From: a virus
Lineage: Duplodnaviria; Heunggongvirae; Uroviricota; Caudoviricetes
Virus record (IMG/VR): IMGVR_UViG_2529292922_000010
Length of the DNA stretch: 64,000 nt
Reading direction: 5' to 3' (one strand)
The translations under genes were made by a program, and so were the position numbers. Under the pieces are notes generated by a model. It was not told the origin of the DNA. It saw nothing but the letters and a program-made list of their open reading frames with translations, and did no database searches. Positions 37,718 through 45,683 of this stretch are shown here, in pieces (positions within the stretch are counted from its first letter, which is position 1; each line of letters opens with the position of its first letter).

Positions 37718-37801
37718 TCGCCATTCAAATTTCACTATTAACCTACTGTTTTTAAAGTAAATCCATCTAAAATTTCAAGGTGAAATCGCCACGATTTCAC
37801 C
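37718..37801. promoter_or_regulatory. parS partition site
   Basis: Box B TCGCCA (37718, 37786) and box A ATTTCAC/GTGAAAT (37729, 37780, 37794) flanking an AT-rich spacer. Confidence 0.75.
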
Positions 37802-37938
37802 TTGGATTTTACCTTCCTCCCCTACTCACGAAAAAAATAAAAAAATTGCTTGTCACGAGAAAGTCAACAAGTGACTTTCAATAAAATCTCTTCCGAAAAG
37901 GGATTCACACAAGTGCCTTGTGTTTAAGGAAGAGTAAA

Positions 37939-39645
37939 TTGAGTAACTTACGCGAATACCAGAATCGTATTGCAGATATCGCAAAACGCTCTAAAGCTGT
38001 GCTTGGCTGGGCAAGCACTGCGCAGTTCGGTACTGATAACCAATTCATTAAAGATGATGCCGCGCGTGCCGCATCTATCCTTGAAGCTGCACGTAAAGAC
38101 CCGGTTTTTGCGGGTATCTCTGATAATGCCACCGCTCAAATCGCTACAGCGTGGGCAAGTGCACTGGCTGACTACGCCGCAGCACATAAATCTATGCCGC
38201 GTCCGGAAATTCTGGCCTCCTGCCACCAGACGCTGGAAAACTGCCTGATTGAGTCCACCCGCAATAGCATGGATGCCACTAATAAAGCGATGCTGGAGTC
38301 CGTCGCAGCAGAGATGATGAGCGTTTCTGACGGTGTTATGCGTCTGCCTTTATTCCTCGCGATGATCCTGCCTGTTCAGTTGGGGGCAGCTACCGCTGAT
38401 GCGTGTACCTTCATTCCGGTTACGCGTGACCAGTCCGACATCTATGAAGTCTTTAACGTGGCAGGTTCCTCTTTTGGTTCTTATGCTGCTGGTGATGTTC
38501 TGGACATGCAATCCGTCGGTGTGTACAGCCAGTTACGTCGCCGCTATGTGCTGGTGGCAAGCTCCGATGGCACTAGCAAAACCGCAACCTTCAAGATGGA
38601 AGACTTCGAAGGCCAGAATGTACCAATCCGAAAAGGTCGCACTAACATCTACGTTAACCGTATTAAGTCTGTTGTTGATAACGGTTCCGGCAGCCTACTT
38701 CACTCGTTTACTAATGCTGCTGGTGAGCAAATCACTGTTACCTGCTCTCTGAACTACAACATTGGTCAGATTGCCCTGTCGTTCTCCAAAGCGCCGGATA
38801 AAGGCACTGAGATCGCAATTGAGACGGAAATCAATATTGAAGCCGCTCCTGAGCTGATCCCGCTGATCAACCACGAAATGAAGAAATACACCCTGTTCCC
38901 AAGTCAGTTCGTTATCGCGGCTGAGCACACGGTACAGGCGGCGTATGAAGCACAGCGTGAATTTGGTCTGGACCTGGGTTCCCTACAGTTCCGCACCCTG
39001 AAGGAATACCTGTCTCATGAACAGGATATGCTACGTCTTCGCATCATGATCTGGCGCACTCTTGCGACCGACACCTTTGACATCGCTCTGCCGGTTAACC
39101 AGTCCTTTGATGTATGGGCAACCATCATTCGTGGCAAATTCCAGACTGTATATCGCGACATTATTGAGCGCGTTAAATCTTCTGGTGCGATGGGGATGTT
39201 TGCTGGTGCTGATGCAGCATCTTTCTTCAAACAGTTGCCGAAGGATTTCTTCCAGCCAGCCGAAGACTATATCCAGACTCCGTATGTTCACTACATCGGT
39301 ACCCTGTTCGGTAACGTGAAAGTGTACGAAGTACCTGCTGGTATTTGTAAGAACTTAACGACAGAGAACATTCAGTTCAGCTCGATGGATGTGCTGTGCT
39401 ACGTCCGTGATGAAAATCCGGGTAAAGCAGGCTTCGTGACTGGTGATGCTGTCCCGGCCATCCCGTTCCAGCATCCGACCACTCCGGCGCTGGTCAACCG
39501 TACCACGCTGTGGGGTTCGGCTATCAATGATATGCACCCACGCAACGGCGCTGATTACTTCACTCGTGTAACGCTGACAATGGCCAAAAAAGGCGGGCTT
39601 AACTTCATAAGCGGCGACACGATTGATGCCGGTGACTCTGAGTAA
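37939..39645 (+). CDS. Large virion structural protein (major head or sheath candidate)
   Basis: 569 aa from TTG 37939 with AAGGAAG RBS; first gene after parS; track ORF begins at 37918. Confidence 0.5.
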   Translation: MSNLREYQNRIADIAKRSKAVLGWASTAQFGTDNQFIKDDAARAASILEAARKDPVFAGISDNATAQIATAWASALADYAAAHKSMPRPEILASCHQTLENCLIESTRNSMDATNKAMLESVAAEMMSVSDGVMRLPLFLAMILPVQLGAATADACTFIPVTRDQSDIYEVFNVAGSSFGSYAAGDVLDMQSVGVYSQLRRRYVLVASSDGTSKTATFKMEDFEGQNVPIRKGRTNIYVNRIKSVVDNGSGSLLHSFTNAAGEQITVTCSLNYNIGQIALSFSKAPDKGTEIAIETEINIEAAPELIPLINHEMKKYTLFPSQFVIAAEHTVQAAYEAQREFGLDLGSLQFRTLKEYLSHEQDMLRLRIMIWRTLATDTFDIALPVNQSFDVWATIIRGKFQTVYRDIIERVKSSGAMGMFAGADAASFFKQLPKDFFQPAEDYIQTPYVHYIGTLFGNVKVYEVPAGICKNLTTENIQFSSMDVLCYVRDENPGKAGFVTGDAVPAIPFQHPTTPALVNRTTLWGSAINDMHPRNGADYFTRVTLTMAKKGGLNFISGDTIDAGDSE

Positions 39646-39705: not shown

Positions 39706-41295
39706 ATGTCTCAATATTCAATTCAACAGTCATTAGGTAATGCATCCGGCGTCGCTGTTAGCCCGATCAATGCCGATGCGACGTTATCTACCGGTGTTGC
39801 ATTAAATAGCAGCTTGTGGGCTGGTATTGGCGTATTTGCGCGTGGCAAGCCGTTTACTGTTCTTGCGGTTACTGAGTCCAATTACGAAGATGTTCTCGGC
39901 GAACCGCTGAAGCCGTCTTCCGGCTCACAGTTCGAACCAATTCGCCATGTGTACGAAGCTATTCAGCAAACGTCTGGTTATGTTGTCCGTGCTGTTCCGG
40001 ATGATGCGAAGTTCCCGATTATTATGTTCGATGAATCAGGCGAACCGGCTTACAGTGCGTTGCCATACGGTTCTGAAATTGAACTTGATAGCGGCGAAGC
40101 CTTTGCTATCTACGTTGATGATGGTGATCCGTGTATTTCACCTACCCGTGAGTTAGCCATCGAAACGGCAACAGCGGACAGCGCGGGTAATGAACGCTTC
40201 CTCTTAAAACTGACCCAGACGACTTCGCTCGGCGTGGTAACGACCCTGGAGACACACACTGTGTCTTTGGCGGAAGAAGCGAAAGATGACATGGGCCGCT
40301 TGTGTTATCTGCCTACGGCTCTGGAAGCCCGTTCTAAATATCTGCGCGCGGTTGTTAATGAAGAGCTGATTTCGACGGCGAAAGTAACAAATAAAAAATC
40401 GTTGGCGTTCACTGGTGGTACCAACGGTGATCAGTCGAAAATATCAACAGCTGCGTACCTGCGTGCGGTGAAAGTGCTGAACAATGCGCCGTACATGTAC
40501 ACCGCTGTTCTTGGCCTGGGCTGCTATGACAATGCGGCTATCACCGCATTAGGTAAAATCTGTGCAGATCGCCTTATTGATGGCTTCTTTGATGTCAAAC
40601 CGACATTAACGTACGCAGAAGCACTACCAGCTGTTGAGGATACCGGTTTACTTGGTACCGATTATGTAAGCTGTTCTGTCTATCACTACCCGTTCTCCTG
40701 CAAAGACAAATGGACCCAATCCCGTGTGGTCTTTGGTCTGTCTGGCGTGGCGTATGCGGCGAAAGCTCGTGGCGTCAAGAAAAACTCTGATGTCGGCGGT
40801 TGGCATTACTCACCGGCTGGTGAAGAACGTGCCGTCATTGCTCGTGCGTCAATTCAACCGCTGTATCCGGAAGATACCCCGGACGAAGAAGCAATGGTCA
40901 AGGGCCGTCTCAATAAAGTATCTGTTGGCACCTCTGGCCAGATGATCATCGACGATGCTTTAACTTGCTGCACGCAGGATAACTATCTGCACTTCCAGCA
41001 CGTCCCATCCCTGATGAATGCAATCAGCCGTTTCTTTGTCCAGTTAGCCCGACAGATGAAGCATAGCCCGGACGGTATTACTGCGGCTGGCCTGACTAAA
41101 GGGATGACCAAACTTTTAGATCGCTTTGTCGCCTCCGGCGCTCTGGTGGCTCCTCGTGATCCTGATGCTGACGGTACAGAACCGTATGTGCTGAAAGTTA
41201 CGCAGGCGGAATTCGATAAATGGGAAGTAGTCTGGGCCTGCTGCCCGACTGGCGTAGCCCGTCGTATCCAGGGCGTACCGCTGCTTATTAAGTAA
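39706..41295 (+). CDS. Large virion structural protein, 529 aa
   Basis: Long ORF with RBS. Confidence 0.5.
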   Translation: MSQYSIQQSLGNASGVAVSPINADATLSTGVALNSSLWAGIGVFARGKPFTVLAVTESNYEDVLGEPLKPSSGSQFEPIRHVYEAIQQTSGYVVRAVPDDAKFPIIMFDESGEPAYSALPYGSEIELDSGEAFAIYVDDGDPCISPTRELAIETATADSAGNERFLLKLTQTTSLGVVTTLETHTVSLAEEAKDDMGRLCYLPTALEARSKYLRAVVNEELISTAKVTNKKSLAFTGGTNGDQSKISTAAYLRAVKVLNNAPYMYTAVLGLGCYDNAAITALGKICADRLIDGFFDVKPTLTYAEALPAVEDTGLLGTDYVSCSVYHYPFSCKDKWTQSRVVFGLSGVAYAAKARGVKKNSDVGGWHYSPAGEERAVIARASIQPLYPEDTPDEEAMVKGRLNKVSVGTSGQMIIDDALTCCTQDNYLHFQHVPSLMNAISRFFVQLARQMKHSPDGITAAGLTKGMTKLLDRFVASGALVAPRDPDADGTEPYVLKVTQAEFDKWEVVWACCPTGVARRIQGVPLLIK

Positions 41296-41304
41296 GGGAA
41301 TACA

Positions 41305-42120
41305 ATGAGCAAAAACTTTTTTCAATCCGGGGCATTTTTGGGGAATGGACTGTCTCGTTTCGCTTTGAACTCTGATCCTGTGCAGCTGATGGAGTCTGCC
41401 CGAGCAAGCGCCGAACCGCCAACAGATCCGGTTATTAATAATAATCCGGAACCGGCGGCACAGACTAACGATAACGTTCCATCTGCCCCGGCTCCTGAGC
41501 AAATCCTGGAAGGGAAAGACGGTAAAGAATGGACCGTCGAACAGGCGCACCAGATGATTCTGGAAGCTGCAAATCGAAGTGCTATGCAGAATGCGTTGAG
41601 TGATGCGGCCGACGCCGTTTTCGCCTGGGCTGATAGCGGTGATCTGACTTTCGACTCCCTTGATGGTTTCGTTCAGGCTATCGCTGGTATCTCTGATGAC
41701 GACGACTCCGAAGTTACAGAAGAACAGGACGATGCCTATAACGAAGCATGGGCAAATGTTGCTGACTTCCTCGCAGCATGCGGTGTAGATGATGACCTGA
41801 TCGAAGCACTGGCTGACGATGAAGACGACGACGCAGCTGCTGATGTTGGTGCCTCTATCGCTGGTTTAGATAGCGACGACCGCGACGAACTGGAAGCGGC
41901 GTTTGTTGTTGCTGGCACTTCTGATGAAATGCTGACTGAAGCATTTAAGAAGGTTGTTCGTAACGGTGAGATCAAACTCATCCGTAAACGCCTGCGTAAA
42001 AAACGTCTGACTGCGGCTCAAAAATCGGCGCTGAAAAAAGCGCGTCGAAAAGCCCAGACCGGCGCGGCAAAACTTGCCCGCAAAAAGTCAATGAAACTGC
42101 GCCGTAAGCGCCTTGGCTAA
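41305..42120 (+). CDS. Highly acidic protein with polybasic C-terminal tail, 271 aa
   Basis: Asp/Glu-rich through ~residue 215, then KLIRKRLRKKR...KLRRKRLG. Confidence 0.5.
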   Translation: MSKNFFQSGAFLGNGLSRFALNSDPVQLMESARASAEPPTDPVINNNPEPAAQTNDNVPSAPAPEQILEGKDGKEWTVEQAHQMILEAANRSAMQNALSDAADAVFAWADSGDLTFDSLDGFVQAIAGISDDDDSEVTEEQDDAYNEAWANVADFLAACGVDDDLIEALADDEDDDAAADVGASIAGLDSDDRDELEAAFVVAGTSDEMLTEAFKKVVRNGEIKLIRKRLRKKRLTAAQKSALKKARRKAQTGAAKLARKKSMKLRRKRLG

Positions 42121-42155
42121 AGGAGGAGGCCGGAGAACTCCGGCCTTTAACTTGA

Positions 42156-42737
42156 ATGGCACCTATTCCTTATGGGGTTTACAGCCAGGCTGACGGTGTA
42201 TCGCCATATCTGAAAGTTACTTTAACGAACTCTCAGTACCAGGTTACCGGATATATCAGCCAGGGAGCGGCAATGAACATGGCCCAGAATTGGGAAGCGC
42301 CGTTTACCGGTATGTCCATGGGATCTGTTGCTGGTGCCTTCAGTGGTTTTGCGCAGGTTGGTACTGAAACAACGTCGGTTGCCCGTTGGAACAGCTTAAT
42401 GGTTTGGGAAGGGGGAACACCGCCGACTTTCACGCTGCCAGTAACTTTCATCGCTTTGTTTGACCCATTCACGGAGGTTTCAGGAGCTATCGCCGCATTG
42501 TCAGCGATGATTAGCCCGGAACTTAAAGATGCCAGTATTGGTGGTCGAATCCCGGAGCGTGTGACGCTAAACATTGGTCGCCGGATCAACATCATTGATG
42601 TCGCTATCCAGGACATAAGTTTCGATCTCGATGCGCCCAGGGACAGCAATGGGCATTTCCTGAAAAACACCGTCAACCTCCAGTTGACCGGTTCTTCGAT
42701 ATATAACAGCTCCGATATTGTTCGGGCGTTCCAGTAA
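42156..42737 (+). CDS. Putative tail-tube-size structural protein, 193 aa
   Basis: ORF in structural operon. Confidence 0.45.
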   Translation: MAPIPYGVYSQADGVSPYLKVTLTNSQYQVTGYISQGAAMNMAQNWEAPFTGMSMGSVAGAFSGFAQVGTETTSVARWNSLMVWEGGTPPTFTLPVTFIALFDPFTEVSGAIAALSAMISPELKDASIGGRIPERVTLNIGRRINIIDVAIQDISFDLDAPRDSNGHFLKNTVNLQLTGSSIYNSSDIVRAFQ

Positions 42738-42748
42738 AAGGATTTTAT

Positions 42749-43258
42749 ATGGGGCACAATAACACTAAGGGAAACCGTAAATTTATTAAGGGCCGCTATA
42801 CTGCCAACGCGGCCAAAGGCGAACGACTGGTATCTTCTGAATTCCAGCTCACTTTTGCAGGCCATGAAGATATCAGCGTACTGGTTCGCACGTCGCAAAT
42901 TCCTGAAATGACCCGCGAGGATGTGGAGGACTATGGTCCGAATGGTGTGAAGTTCAACCAGCACGGTCCAATTCGAAACTCTGGGGAAATCCAGGTCCAG
43001 TGCGTGGAGACTATCGAAGGCGATATTCTTCAGTTCATTAAAGATCGCATTGCGGCGAAGGACTATGTTGATATCACGATGGCTGCTACCCCTGAATCCA
43101 AATCTTCCGGGGTTAACGCTGTGACAAAAGCTGCTACAACAATTGAAATGTTGGACTGCAAAATCTACAGTGATGCAATCGACTTTAGTACCGAAGATGT
43201 GACTGCCGCTGTGCGCCCGTCACTTCGTATCGTCTACAACTGGATTGAGTGGGATTAA
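42749..43258 (+). CDS. Putative structural protein, 169 aa
   Basis: RBS AAAGGA; terminator follows. Confidence 0.45.
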   Translation: MGHNNTKGNRKFIKGRYTANAAKGERLVSSEFQLTFAGHEDISVLVRTSQIPEMTREDVEDYGPNGVKFNQHGPIRNSGEIQVQCVETIEGDILQFIKDRIAAKDYVDITMAATPESKSSGVNAVTKAATTIEMLDCKIYSDAIDFSTEDVTAAVRPSLRIVYNWIEWD

Positions 43259-43277: not shown

Positions 43278-43304
43278 AAAGCTCCTTCGGGAGCTTTTTT
43301 ATTT
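43278..43304 (+). terminator. Rho-independent terminator
   Basis: AAAGCTCC-TTCG-GGAGCTTT then T-run. Confidence 0.7.
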
Positions 43305-43374
43305 GGAGAGGAAAGGGTGCATTGAGGATACCTGACACACGAAGAGTGGCGAGGATCTCTCCCCGCCAGGTCTC

Positions 43375-43530
43375 TTACCTTTCAGATTCGTAGGCTGTGA
43401 AGACAGTGACCTCCGTCTGGCCGGTTCGGATTCGTACCTCGCAGAGGTCTTTCCTCGTTACCAGTGCCGTCACAATGACGGTTAAACAGATGACGATCAG
43501 AGCGATTAACATCGCTTTTTGCTGCTTCAT
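43375..43530 (-). CDS. hok: Hok/Gef-family type I toxin
   Basis: 51 aa MKQQKAMLIALIVICLTVIVTALVTRKDLCEVRIRTGQTEVTVFTAYESER; AAGGAG RBS; overlapping mok-like frame 43382..43588. Confidence 0.85.
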   Translation of the reverse strand: MKQQKAMLIALIVICLTVIVTALVTRKDLCEVRIRTGQTEVTVFTAYESER

Positions 43531-43711
43531 AGCCTGCTTCTCCTTGACCTTTTGGTCGGTAAGAGGCTAATCTACGTATGCTAAGCATAGATGTGGCCTC
43601 AGATTAATGTTAAGCGTCTTGCAGGACGCGTAATGTTATCTGGGGCTTTCTTCTATCTGCTTTTCGGGTAATGCCTGAAGCAGATAGCCTCAAGCACCCG
43701 CAACGATTGTA

Positions 43712-43957
43712 TCAATGTCTGGCTTTTTTTCTATAGAAATCACCTGGAAGGGTGAATATCCACATCAGAAGAAATGTTGCAGCAAACATGATCCCTAATG
43801 GCCAGACCGCGCCAAAGAAAATCCATACTAAGATCTCCTCTGCTTGTTCTTTGCGGTCGATATCGACAAGCATTTTTCGGCTGATCATGTATACACAGAA
43901 GCCAATACAAACATATCCTGCAAAAGCGATCGCTAACTGTAAAAAATCAGATTGCAT
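43712..43957 (-). CDS. Small two-TM membrane protein, 81 aa
   Basis: ATG 43957 with GAGG RBS; track ORF starts at 44011. Confidence 0.4.
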   Translation of the reverse strand: MQSDFLQLAIAFAGYVCIGFCVYMISRKMLVDIDRKEQAEEILVWIFFGAVWPLGIMFAATFLLMWIFTLPGDFYRKKARH

Positions 43958-43987
43958 CTCCGACCTCAAACTGAAAACGCCAGGTGA

Positions 43988-44004
43988 CTCCAGATTAGAG
44001 CAAT
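43988..44004 (-). promoter_or_regulatory. Partial C1-operator-like site
   Basis: Minus strand ATTGCTCTAATCTGGAG; first 11 of 17 positions match. Confidence 0.3.
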
Positions 44005-44007
44005 CTA

Positions 44008-44853
44008 TCACCCTCTAAATCCTGCCGGTATACCCCATTGTTCGTTATCTTTATTTTTGGCTAAAACCGCATTAAGAGCTTCGTTTACCGTCATGCAATG
44101 CGGCAAATTATCGAAGTTTGATACCCCGCCAATATCAGGAGAACGCTTGTTCTTCAGGTAAGCATATTTCCGCGCTGCCGCCTCTACTTTCTGCTTGAAC
44201 TCATGTTTTTGAGCGCGTTTTTTGGATAACCGCAGATTGTCAGCCTTTGCTTTTGCCTCGGCGATCCATGAAGTCAGTTTTTTGAGGCTGGTCGTTTCGG
44301 CACCGCCGGAAACTGATCTTTTTGTTTTTTTAATTTGTGACTTCTTATTCTTTATTGCCACGTCATCCTGACAGGGGGAGGGGGTATCATTTTGACATGG
44401 GGGTGTGGATAAAAAATTAAATAAAGCCAATGTCTTAGCGAGAACAGCTTTAACCTTGGTTGCCGCTGAAGAGATCTTTAATTTGCTTTCAATCAGCGCA
44501 TTTTTGGCTTGTTGTGCGAAGGCCAAAAAGGATGGTGTAAACCGGTACAGGTTAGCGCGACGTTCACGGTGATCGCCGATAACAATCTCTACAGACAGGA
44601 TTCCTTTGTTTACAGCTTCACGGAATGCACGAACGACGGTTGATTGGCTATAACCAGTTTCTGCCGCGATCAGGCGGTGAGGCTTGTGAATGAAGTATTC
44701 ACTGGTTGTTGCCGCGAGATTTGCACATTGCGACAGGATATGCCCGGCGCTACGGGATAGACCGGAGTGTGTTACAAAGCAGGCCAATTCATAGCCAGAA
44801 AAAGTAAAATCGCTCATCGTTATACAGCTCAGGAAAGTGACTTTAGCCAGCAT
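44008..44853 (-). CDS. repL: RepL-like lytic replication protein
   Basis: 281 aa; last gene of the kilA operon as in P1; HTH-like N-terminal region; start uncertain. Confidence 0.55.
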   Translation of the reverse strand: MLAKVTFLSCITMSDFTFSGYELACFVTHSGLSRSAGHILSQCANLAATTSEYFIHKPHRLIAAETGYSQSTVVRAFREAVNKGILSVEIVIGDHRERRANLYRFTPSFLAFAQQAKNALIESKLKISSAATKVKAVLAKTLALFNFLSTPPCQNDTPSPCQDDVAIKNKKSQIKKTKRSVSGGAETTSLKKLTSWIAEAKAKADNLRLSKKRAQKHEFKQKVEAAARKYAYLKNKRSPDIGGVSNFDNLPHCMTVNEALNAVLAKNKDNEQWGIPAGFRG

Positions 44854-44882
44854 TACAATGCTGGTGGTTCTTACTACGTCTG

Positions 44883-45683
44883 TTAGCGCGTTGCCGCGAC
44901 AGGTACCAGCACACCAGCATCAAGCAATCGCTTCATCAGCCACTGCTGACCTTTGCCGGTTATACGAGTCGTGAAAGAAATCCTGCTTCCATTGCTTGTA
45001 TCGATCACGGTTTCTTTAAGGGTGAAATACCCACGGGATATGTATTCTTGTTTGGGGACGTTCCTGCGTTCACCGGTTGCGATCAGAATTCCGTTATCAC
45101 GCAACCAGGTGAAGAGATAGTTTTGGCCCAGGCCGAGCACTTTGGCATAGTTGCCGATTAGAACCCCGCTGGCGGTAGCAACGCGTTCGGCGAATTCGAC
45201 TTTAGGTGCATCCATAAGCATTTTTTGCTCCAGCCGTTGCTTTTGCTCTGCCAGGTCGGCAGCCAAACGGAGAGCTTCAGGGAGACTCTGCGGAATAGCA
45301 GGTTGTAATCTTCCGGCTCGATAGTCGATAAATGTCTGGTTTACCTTCAGCCGAAACGCGGGAGAAATCCAGCCTGCGTACTCCACAGCGAGCAATTCAT
45401 GGGCAAAAGTGCCGCCGCCACGGCCTTCGAACGAAACTATGCAATTCTGCATAGTTTCTTTTTCAAGCTCTTCGATGAGCTGTTTTGCTGACAGCGTTCT
45501 TAGCCATTGAGCTGGCGCTTTATGGGCACCGAGTCCGCTCGCTCTGTGTAGAGCATTAAGGTTGTAACGGCCAGCGCGGTCGGTCGTAATTTCAACACCA
45601 CAAATAACGGGCAGAGTGGTTGAAGGATCGACATTTTGATGAAGGTTTGATATATTCATATCCGCATTGAATGTTTGTTGCAT
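44883..45683 (-). CDS. kilA: KilA (KilA-N domain protein)
   Basis: 266 aa; KilA-N-type N-terminus; C-terminal domain near-duplicate of ant C-terminus. Confidence 0.75.
   Translation of the reverse strand: MQQTFNADMNISNLHQNVDPSTTLPVICGVEITTDRAGRYNLNALHRASGLGAHKAPAQWLRTLSAKQLIEELEKETMQNCIVSFEGRGGGTFAHELLAVEYAGWISPAFRLKVNQTFIDYRAGRLQPAIPQSLPEALRLAADLAEQKQRLEQKMLMDAPKVEFAERVATASGVLIGNYAKVLGLGQNYLFTWLRDNGILIATGERRNVPKQEYISRGYFTLKETVIDTSNGSRISFTTRITGKGQQWLMKRLLDAGVLVPVAATR

Follow-up and report, generated by a model that had tools for sequence, protein, structure and literature searches.

Gene 21 of bacteriophage P1, labeled as a tail gene, probably encodes a scaffolding or core protein of the prohead that is processed by the protease Pro

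The window analyzed in this study, a stretch of 64,000 nucleotides from a tailed virus of the Caudoviricetes (IMG/VR record IMGVR_UViG_2529292922_000010), contains a plus-strand open reading frame (41305..42120, start ATG, stop TAA) for a protein of 271 amino acids with an acidic body and a basic end, and the question is what such a protein does among the structural genes of a phage. Between positions 37800 and 43400, identity is 99.1% to the P1 isolate MH422554 and 98.3% to NC_005856, the reference genome; judged by sequence, the window is from P1 itself or from a P1-like phage-plasmid nearly identical to it. The reading frame corresponds to P1 gene 21, whose product is referred to as gp21. 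According to the NC_005856 annotation, it comes third in the late operon LP23-23-22-21-pmgG-bplB, in which genes 23 and 22 encode the major capsid protein (MCP) and the tail sheath, and the earlier note, which was made from the sequence alone, was thus right in placing it in a structural operon. The features of the operon are as follows, with an arrow marking a cut by the prohead protease Pro.

37869..37887, plus strand: late promoter LP23, which drives 23-22-21-pmgG-bplB (correspondence with the NC_005856 annotation)
37939..39645, plus strand: gene 23, major capsid protein (annotation)
37939-38298, plus strand: delta domain of gp23, removed by Pro at AMLE120↓S121, with codon E120 at 38296-38298 (mapped P1 cleavage site)
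39706..41295, plus strand: gene 22, tail sheath, upstream neighbor of gene 21 (annotation)
41305..42120, plus strand: P1 gene 21 coding sequence (P1_gp056; 271 amino acids plus stop), PHROG 1053, annotated in NC_005856 as 'baseplate or tail tube'
42125..42148, plus strand: GC-rich hairpin directly 3' of the gene 21 stop codon and before pmgG (-22.4 kcal/mol, z -4.2 relative to shuffles)
42156..42737, plus strand: pmgG, essential tube-linking protein, downstream of gene 21 (annotation, literature)
42749..43258, plus strand: bplB, the actual tail tube protein, downstream of pmgG (annotation, cryo-EM)
43278-43297: terminator-like site of the operon, after bplB (terminator prediction)

The hairpin at 42125-42148 is not a canonical terminator because it has no T-run, and terminator prediction did not call it; it could be an mRNA-stabilizing or attenuating element that separates 23-22-21 from pmgG-bplB. 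Just past bplB, at about 43300-44900, the window departs from the reference P1, where pmgF sits. A Hok-like toxin open reading frame (MKQQKAMLIALIVICLTVIVTALVTRKDLCEVRIRTGQTEV...) lies at 43375-43530 on the minus strand and is followed by different accessory genes, an arrangement common to some P1 isolates, e.g., MH422554.

In related database records, this protein is named 'tail protein', 'tail tube protein', 'putative baseplate protein', or 'hypothetical'. Searches of gp21 against the domain and family collections Pfam, NCBIfam, and PHROGs returned only PHROG 1053, 'unknown function'. Profiles of the whole protein and of its C-terminal module matched no PDB sequence at E ≤ 10, and the module gave only noise against Pfam. 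The longer members of the family were scanned for informative fused domains, and none were found. An exhaustive profile search gave 600 representative clusters (about 600 at 50% identity); scans of viral contigs with the proteins P0130 and P0120 found no loci.

Composition counts give 50 Asp/Glu and 10 Lys/Arg residues for positions 1 to 222 (net -40) and 23 Lys/Arg with no Asp or Glu for positions 223 to 271 (net +23), and the protein overall has a pI of 4.55 and a net charge of -17. The basic stretch is the polybasic C-terminal tail described in the earlier note. The Asp/Glu runs quoted there are also present; the acidity is nevertheless concentrated in residues 61 to 212, and the first ~60 residues, which are Pro/Asn-rich, are nearly neutral. 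Among the 83 open reading frames of at least 100 amino acids in the window, gp21 has the highest score for charge segregation (63, next 34). This segregation is not an accident of one sequence, because the split is kept across 194 full-length members of the family, with a median net charge of -33 for the body (range -99 to -16) and +23 for the C-terminal module.

An AlphaFold2 (AF2) model was obtained from an input alignment of 19 sequences (mean pLDDT 71). The model is all-α in its overall fold, with a small C-terminal β-hairpin besides. A low-confidence linker lies between the acidic bundle and the β-hairpin (residues 217 to 224, 'VVRNGEIKL'), and the basic helix-turn-helix at the C-terminus is formed by helices 237 to 249 and 253 to 269 (pLDDT 69-86). 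The three parts of the protein are as follows.

41305..41484, plus strand: N-terminal region, residues 1-60, predicted to be disordered, Pro/Asn-rich, variable in length among homologues, and containing the conserved site LME↓S (AF2 pLDDT 39-49; alignment A1 of the family)
41503..41916, plus strand: acidic helical-bundle domain, residues 67-204, with conserved W108, Y145, G160, and D175 (AF2 pLDDT 80-92; conserved columns)
41941..42117, plus strand: C-terminal module A213-G271, 59 amino acids, net +25, consisting of the β-hairpin 'KVVRNGE' and the basic helix-turn-helix; family signature (AF2, alignments)

The hairpin and helix-turn-helix module, with the consensus KVVRxGK...SAAQKxALKKARRKAxTxxAKxxRxKSMKxRxKRG, is the best-conserved part of the family and contains invariant specific residues. 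In most members, it forms the very C-terminal end of the protein; a few members have a duplicated module. Proteins that carry it twice include P0190, P0211, P0219, and the product of L098 9533-10429; one double-module protein is acidic, has a CxxC...CxxC zinc ribbon, and is encoded on a 205-kb jumbo-phage contig (L098), where its neighbors are all unannotated. Since the module is duplicated and also occurs on this zinc-ribbon protein of a jumbo phage, it behaves as an independent, mobile unit.

The earlier note had proposed that gp21 may be an acidic DNA mimic that acts against restriction, packaged and injected in the manner of the Dar proteins. The strong acidity of gp21 and the fact that P1 does package anti-restriction proteins are in line with this proposal. 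However, structure comparison of the predicted all-α model revealed no similarity to any DNA mimic, including the known folds of Ocr and ArdA; intact gp21 is not in virions; and gp21 lies outside the six genetically defined Dar components. In addition, its position in the structural operon is universal and fixed across about 600 clusters, unlike that of accessory anti-defense genes. We therefore regard an anti-restriction role as very improbable. The wider suggestion of the same note, a virion-operon protein that is injected or condenses DNA, fared differently: a head-internal, processed protein is supported by the data below, and its variant as a condensing or injected peptide appears unlikely. 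Like the packaged Dar and T4 internal proteins (IPs), gp21 carries predicted prohead-protease sites.

Only one cut by Pro has been mapped experimentally, namely AMLE120↓S121 in gp23. The motif [LIMFV][LIMFVT]E[SAG], i.e., hydrophobic-hydrophobic-Glu-(Ser/Ala/Gly), was counted in P1 proteins and compared with 2000 composition-preserving shuffles. In gp21, there are five copies, whereas 0.31 are expected (p ≤ 0.0005).

41386..41397, plus strand: predicted Pro motif LMES, residues 28-31, cut E30↓S31 (motif; kept as (L/M)(L/M)ES in close homologues)
41503..41514, plus strand: predicted Pro motif ILEG, residues 67-70, cut E69↓G70, site B1 (residue co-varies with the MCP cleavage site, E/D/S-A)
41557..41568, plus strand: predicted Pro motif ILEA, residues 85-88, cut E87↓A88, site B2 (motif, homologue comparison)
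41797..41808, plus strand: additional, less conserved motif copy LIEA, residues 165-168, possible cut E167↓A168 (motif)
41932..41943, plus strand: predicted Pro motif LTEA, residues 210-213, cut E212↓A213, site C, directly before the basic module (E212 kept in at least 90% of alignment A1)

No other open reading frame among the 109 of at least 80 amino acids in the window has three or more copies. Enrichment of the motif within P1 is confined to gp21, Pro, the delta domain of gp23, and the N-terminus of DarA, and the tail proteins have zero or one copy. All three copies in gp23 fall within the delta domain (residues 1 to 120). Pro has seven copies (0.67 expected), which suggests extensive self-digestion. 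The two copies in DarA (darA, NC_005856 = locus L118, 27904-29823, minus strand) are MTE↓S at residues 40 to 43 and LLE68↓A69; the latter is predicted to be the exact Pro cut, in agreement with the loss of an N-terminal fragment of ~9 kDa from DarA and with the start of its cryo-EM model at residue 70. No copy was found in S, R, gp16, BplA, PmgA, Tub, PmgB, PmgG, or BplB, and Sit, gp22 (sheath), and PmgC have one copy each, at or near expectation. The portal protein (prt, L118 17312-19021) has a single ILE↓S 12 residues from its C-terminus, a count not above chance, which may be a minor Pro cut. The gene for Pro itself (L118 19014-20033) is labeled 'tail fiber protein' in RefSeq, as is PHROG 1801, despite the 99.4% HHpred match to the T4 gp21 protease, and the C-terminal half of Pro gives weak coiled-coil-type Pfam hits.

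The relation of these sites to the capsid protein was followed in 29 phages, taken from viral contigs, bacterial genomes, and metagenomes, that encode both a P1-type MCP and a gp21 homologue; the MCP cleavage sites outside P1 are predicted from alignment to P1 only. The MCP residue aligned to E120 of P1 is Glu in 18 phages, Asp in 9 (e.g., YSLD↓SA, MLD↓SV, and AILD↓SA), and a small residue, Ser or Ala, in 2 (LLLA↓SV and MLLS↓SM). In all of them (29/29), the conserved sites of the gp21 homologue share the residue class of the MCP site of the same phage, with site sets such as AFD↓S, MLD↓A, and MMLD↓A or LLLS↓N, LILS↓A, and LLLS↓A. A neighbor-joining tree of the mature MCP region only contains at least four independent switches in specificity, each of which is mirrored in gp21. 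An alignment-free test gave the same pattern: for the Glu-type phages, 61 E-motifs were counted (6.5 expected), with the D-motif at background (7 vs 8.1 expected); for the Asp-type phages, the counts were 23 for the D-motif (4.3 expected) and zero for the E-motif; and for the small-residue phages, the cognate motif was counted 5 times (0.4 expected). When loci were ascertained from the MCP side, a gp21-family gene was present in 17 of the 17 informative ones. The simplest reading of these sequences is that one protease recognizes both the capsid protein and gp21, and we consider it likely that gp21 is a substrate of Pro.

In T4, the prohead protease acts in the prohead core: the scaffold proteins gp22, gp67, and gp68 are broken down to small peptides, the internal proteins and gp23/gp24 are trimmed, and the last substrate is the protease itself. 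The head proteins of P1 are of this type: gp23, Prt, and Pro correspond by HHpred to the T4 capsid protein, the portal protein gp20, and the 'prohead core protein protease' gp21 (100%, 100%, and 99.4%, respectively; Gonzales et al., Table S4). According to two recent structural and proteomic papers, P1 has no known scaffold of its own besides the capsid protein, and both invoke the delta domain of gp23 instead. The 120-residue delta domain could indeed scaffold the head alone; in T4, an N-terminal propeptide of the MCP and a separate core coexist. The sequences show that the motif is enriched in gp21, that within P1 it is otherwise limited to known substrates of head maturation, and that it co-varies with the capsid site; from this, we infer that gp21 is cleaved inside the prohead, with a scaffolding role for the protein and an anchoring role for its module. 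The best explanation, which we hold to be probable, is that gp21 is a prohead-internal scaffolding or core protein processed by Pro, i.e., a non-homologous analogue of T4 gp22.

In the mechanism that we propose, gp21 would be made in quantity from the late LP23 operon alongside the capsid protein and would enter the assembling prohead, in which the conserved basic hairpin and helix-turn-helix would be the probable anchor, either to the interior of the shell or to other core components, and the acidic helical-bundle body would fill or organize the core. Activated Pro would then cut gp21 after Glu at E30, E69, E87, perhaps E167, and E212, with the same specificity as in the removal of the gp23 delta domain (MLE120↓S) and the predicted trimming of the DarA N-terminus (LLE68↓A). 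The predicted fragments are 1-30, 31-69, 70-87, 88-167 (net -20), 168-212 (net -15), and 213-271 (6.8 kDa, +25), and the cut at E212↓A213 would part the acidic body (net about -42) from the 59-residue peptide of +25. The fragments would exit the shell or stay as small internal peptides, making room for the DNA.

T4 gp22 resembles P1 gp21 in length (269 vs 271 amino acids), in its helical and acidic character (net -28 vs -17 overall and -40 for the body of gp21), and in the enrichment of the motif of its cognate protease (in gp22, 16 copies of [LI]xE with 5.7 expected; in gp21, 5 copies of its motif with 0.3 expected). Both proteins are encoded together with a T4-type set of MCP, portal, and protease, and both are absent from mature virions. 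On the other hand, gp22 has no polybasic C-terminal module, and its gene lies between those of the protease and the MCP, whereas gene 21 of P1 lies between the sheath and tube genes. The earlier note had also considered homology to a scaffolding protein; none to known scaffolding proteins was detectable by domain, PDB profile, or structure searches or by hhalign of alignment A1 with gp22 (probability 0.3%).

The C-terminal helix-turn-helix of the P22 scaffold binds the coat protein electrostatically, and it is by likeness to this P22-type element that the basic module of gp21 may be regarded as an anchor. For gp21, a basic helix-turn-helix is predicted at the very end of an elongated helical acidic protein, which recalls the C-terminal coat-binding helix-turn-helix of the scaffolds of P22 (gp8) and of the staphylococcal phage 80alpha. 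The searches retrieved no sequence or fold match to solved scaffolds, however, and the module of gp21 is far more basic (+25 in 59 residues), has an extra β-hairpin, and has a protease site in front of it; the P22 scaffold is recycled and not cleaved.

The main conflict with a scaffolding role is the genetic label. Gene 21 was defined by amber mutants and labeled 'baseplate or tail tube', and Walker and Walker reportedly assigned its amber phenotype to the tail-defective class in 1983, whereas a scaffold mutant should have head defects. The label could result from polarity of the amber mutations on the essential downstream genes pmgG and bplB. Alternatively, the open reading frame could have been assigned by position only, in which case the alleles may lie in bplB or pmgG; in the literature table, no amber mutant is assigned to bplB, the real tube gene. 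Gene 21 also has an 'essential' score by CRISPRi, which is uninformative because it is polar, as was acknowledged.

A structural role of gp21 in the tail tube or baseplate was rejected. Tail tube proteins (the T4 gp19 fold; BplB, Tub, and PmgG in P1) share with gp21 only the genomic neighborhood and the historical label; they are β-sandwich proteins, whereas the gp21 model is all-α, and gp21 matched no tube-type or baseplate protein in Pfam, NCBIfam, or PDB. In the P1 cryo-EM structure, the tube is BplB, the initiator is Tub, and the linker is PmgG, and gp21 is not in the inventory of virion proteins. Similarly, virion LC-MS/MS (23 proteins) detected the products of the four neighboring genes in the operon (ORFs 54, 55, 57, and 58) and not ORF 56, which is gp21; processed fragments would escape tryptic mass spectrometry. 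The predicted fragments yield only two fully tryptic peptides of 7 to 35 residues, so that retention of fragments can be neither shown nor refuted from the published virion proteome.

The absence of gp21 from virions would also be expected of a nonstructural tail-assembly factor or chaperone for the baseplate or tube, in which the motifs would be irrelevant or serve another purpose. In one variant, for example, the acidic body would hold the basic tape measure protein Sit and the basic tail would contact the negative lumen of the tube. Such a factor would agree with the amber label and with the invariant position of the gene between the sheath and tube-linking genes, and the tape measures of the relatives are net basic (+21 to +30), with the P1 tube lumen being negative. 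Position, however, does not discriminate between head and tail in this lineage. The gene for the gp21 homologue is always beside the sheath gene, even in the Psychrobacter lineage, in which the MCP gene is elsewhere, but genes of the head are interspersed with those of the tail (the sheath gene itself has the MCP gene as a neighbor), so that synteny was rejected as a discriminator and a conserved place next to the sheath gene argues only weakly for a tail role. Tail assembly chaperones of the lambda gpG/GT and P2 E/E+E' type are encoded directly upstream of the tape measure gene, and gene 21 is not: in P1, the sit gene is located at a different place and has pmgB upstream, and where the module of a relative is contiguous, five genes (those for PmgG, BplB, and three other proteins) lie between the gp21 homologue and the tape measure gene. 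A tail factor also leaves unexplained why the motif is confined to head-maturation substrates and why the E/D/S-A switches occur in step with the capsid site in at least four lineages; T4-type prohead proteases, moreover, work inside the prohead core, and the amber label is explicable by polarity or by assignment from position. Since the co-variation is left unexplained, we gave this reading less weight and consider it quite unlikely.

Several arrangements in relatives bear on the same neighborhood. In most relatives outside the enterobacteria, one or two additional small open reading frames (103-184 amino acids), which P1 lacks, lie between the MCP and sheath genes (e.g., L005 7952-8377, L089 7162-8156, and L003 7924-8235); the product of L089 7602-8156 has collagen-like or tail-fiber-like repeats, and the others have no PHROG match. 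In another relative, an inserted open reading frame of 1588 amino acids (L091 5156-9922) separates the sheath gene from the gp21 homologue, which itself reaches 362 amino acids through an acidic/basic insert. In Psychrobacter MAGs (L114 1643-3159; L117 8127-10564), the genes run in the order tail fibers, sheath, gp21 homologue, Hdf-like protein (PHROG 1620), BplA-like baseplate protein, and tube, without the MCP gene next to them. In this lineage, the gp21 homologue is extended by ~45 basic-rich amino acids after the module, and its gene is followed by that of the Hdf-like, head-internal protein.

The fate of the C-terminal fragment leads to a further explanation, in which gp21 serves chiefly as a precursor from which an internal peptide that binds DNA is made: Pro would free the 59-residue, +25 peptide, which would remain with the DNA after packaging and may enter the cell along with it, and the acidic body would be a charge-neutralizing pro-region and capsid-targeting part. 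This explanation overlaps with the scaffolding or core role, because both require processing by Pro. It would account for the module being the most conserved part of the family, with invariant residues and duplication in some members, and for the conserved cleavage site directly before it. Low-resolution density without assignment has been seen inside the P1 head near DarA, and the T4 core includes basic internal proteins that are injected. Tryptic LC-MS/MS of virions gave no gp21-derived peptide; the processed module, however, leaves only 'AQTGAAK' as a fully tryptic peptide of at least 7 residues, and the virion proteome therefore could not have detected the released peptide. Against a mere pro-region, the conserved folded bundle (pLDDT 80-92; W108, Y145, G160, and D175) looks like more than that, and the charge of the body (-16 to -99) does not track that of the module. 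On balance, we think it unlikely that supplying such a peptide is the main role of gp21.

Two known systems are relevant to this peptide. T4 IPI-III and P1 DarA have a prohead-protease motif, as does gp21, and the basic character of the IPs matches that of the predicted gp21 peptide. Processing takes a short N-terminal targeting peptide from the IPs and from DarA, and their bulk is retained and detectable in virions, whereas gp21 has four to five predicted cuts and no product detected in virions. In adenovirus, the maturation protease frees the very basic DNA-condensing peptides pVII and pX (mu) inside the capsid. The virus lineage and the sequences are unrelated to those of gp21, for which retention of the peptide is a proposal. 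It is conceivable, if doubtful, that the A213-G271 peptide stays bound to the genome and enters the cell with the DNA, and gp21 would then be a phage counterpart of adenovirus mu/pVII made as a self-neutralized acidic-basic polyprotein. If this were true, the module, present in about 600 clusters, would be a new class of virion DNA-associated peptides with a possible role in condensation, ejection, or protection.

P1 is both a classical phage model and a tool in standard genetic use, and the tail label of its gene 21 is decades old and has spread to relatives as 'tail tube protein'. If gp21 is a scaffolding or core protein of the prohead, head assembly in P1 would depend on the delta domain together with a T4-like core and not on the delta domain alone, and the 'missing' scaffold would be supplied. 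PHROG 1053, with about 600 clusters at 50% identity, would gain a function, and the polybasic module would be a candidate capsid-targeting or DNA-binding tag, which is relevant to protein delivery by P1. Co-variation of cleavage motifs between the MCP and other open reading frames may also serve to find protease substrates in uncultured phages.
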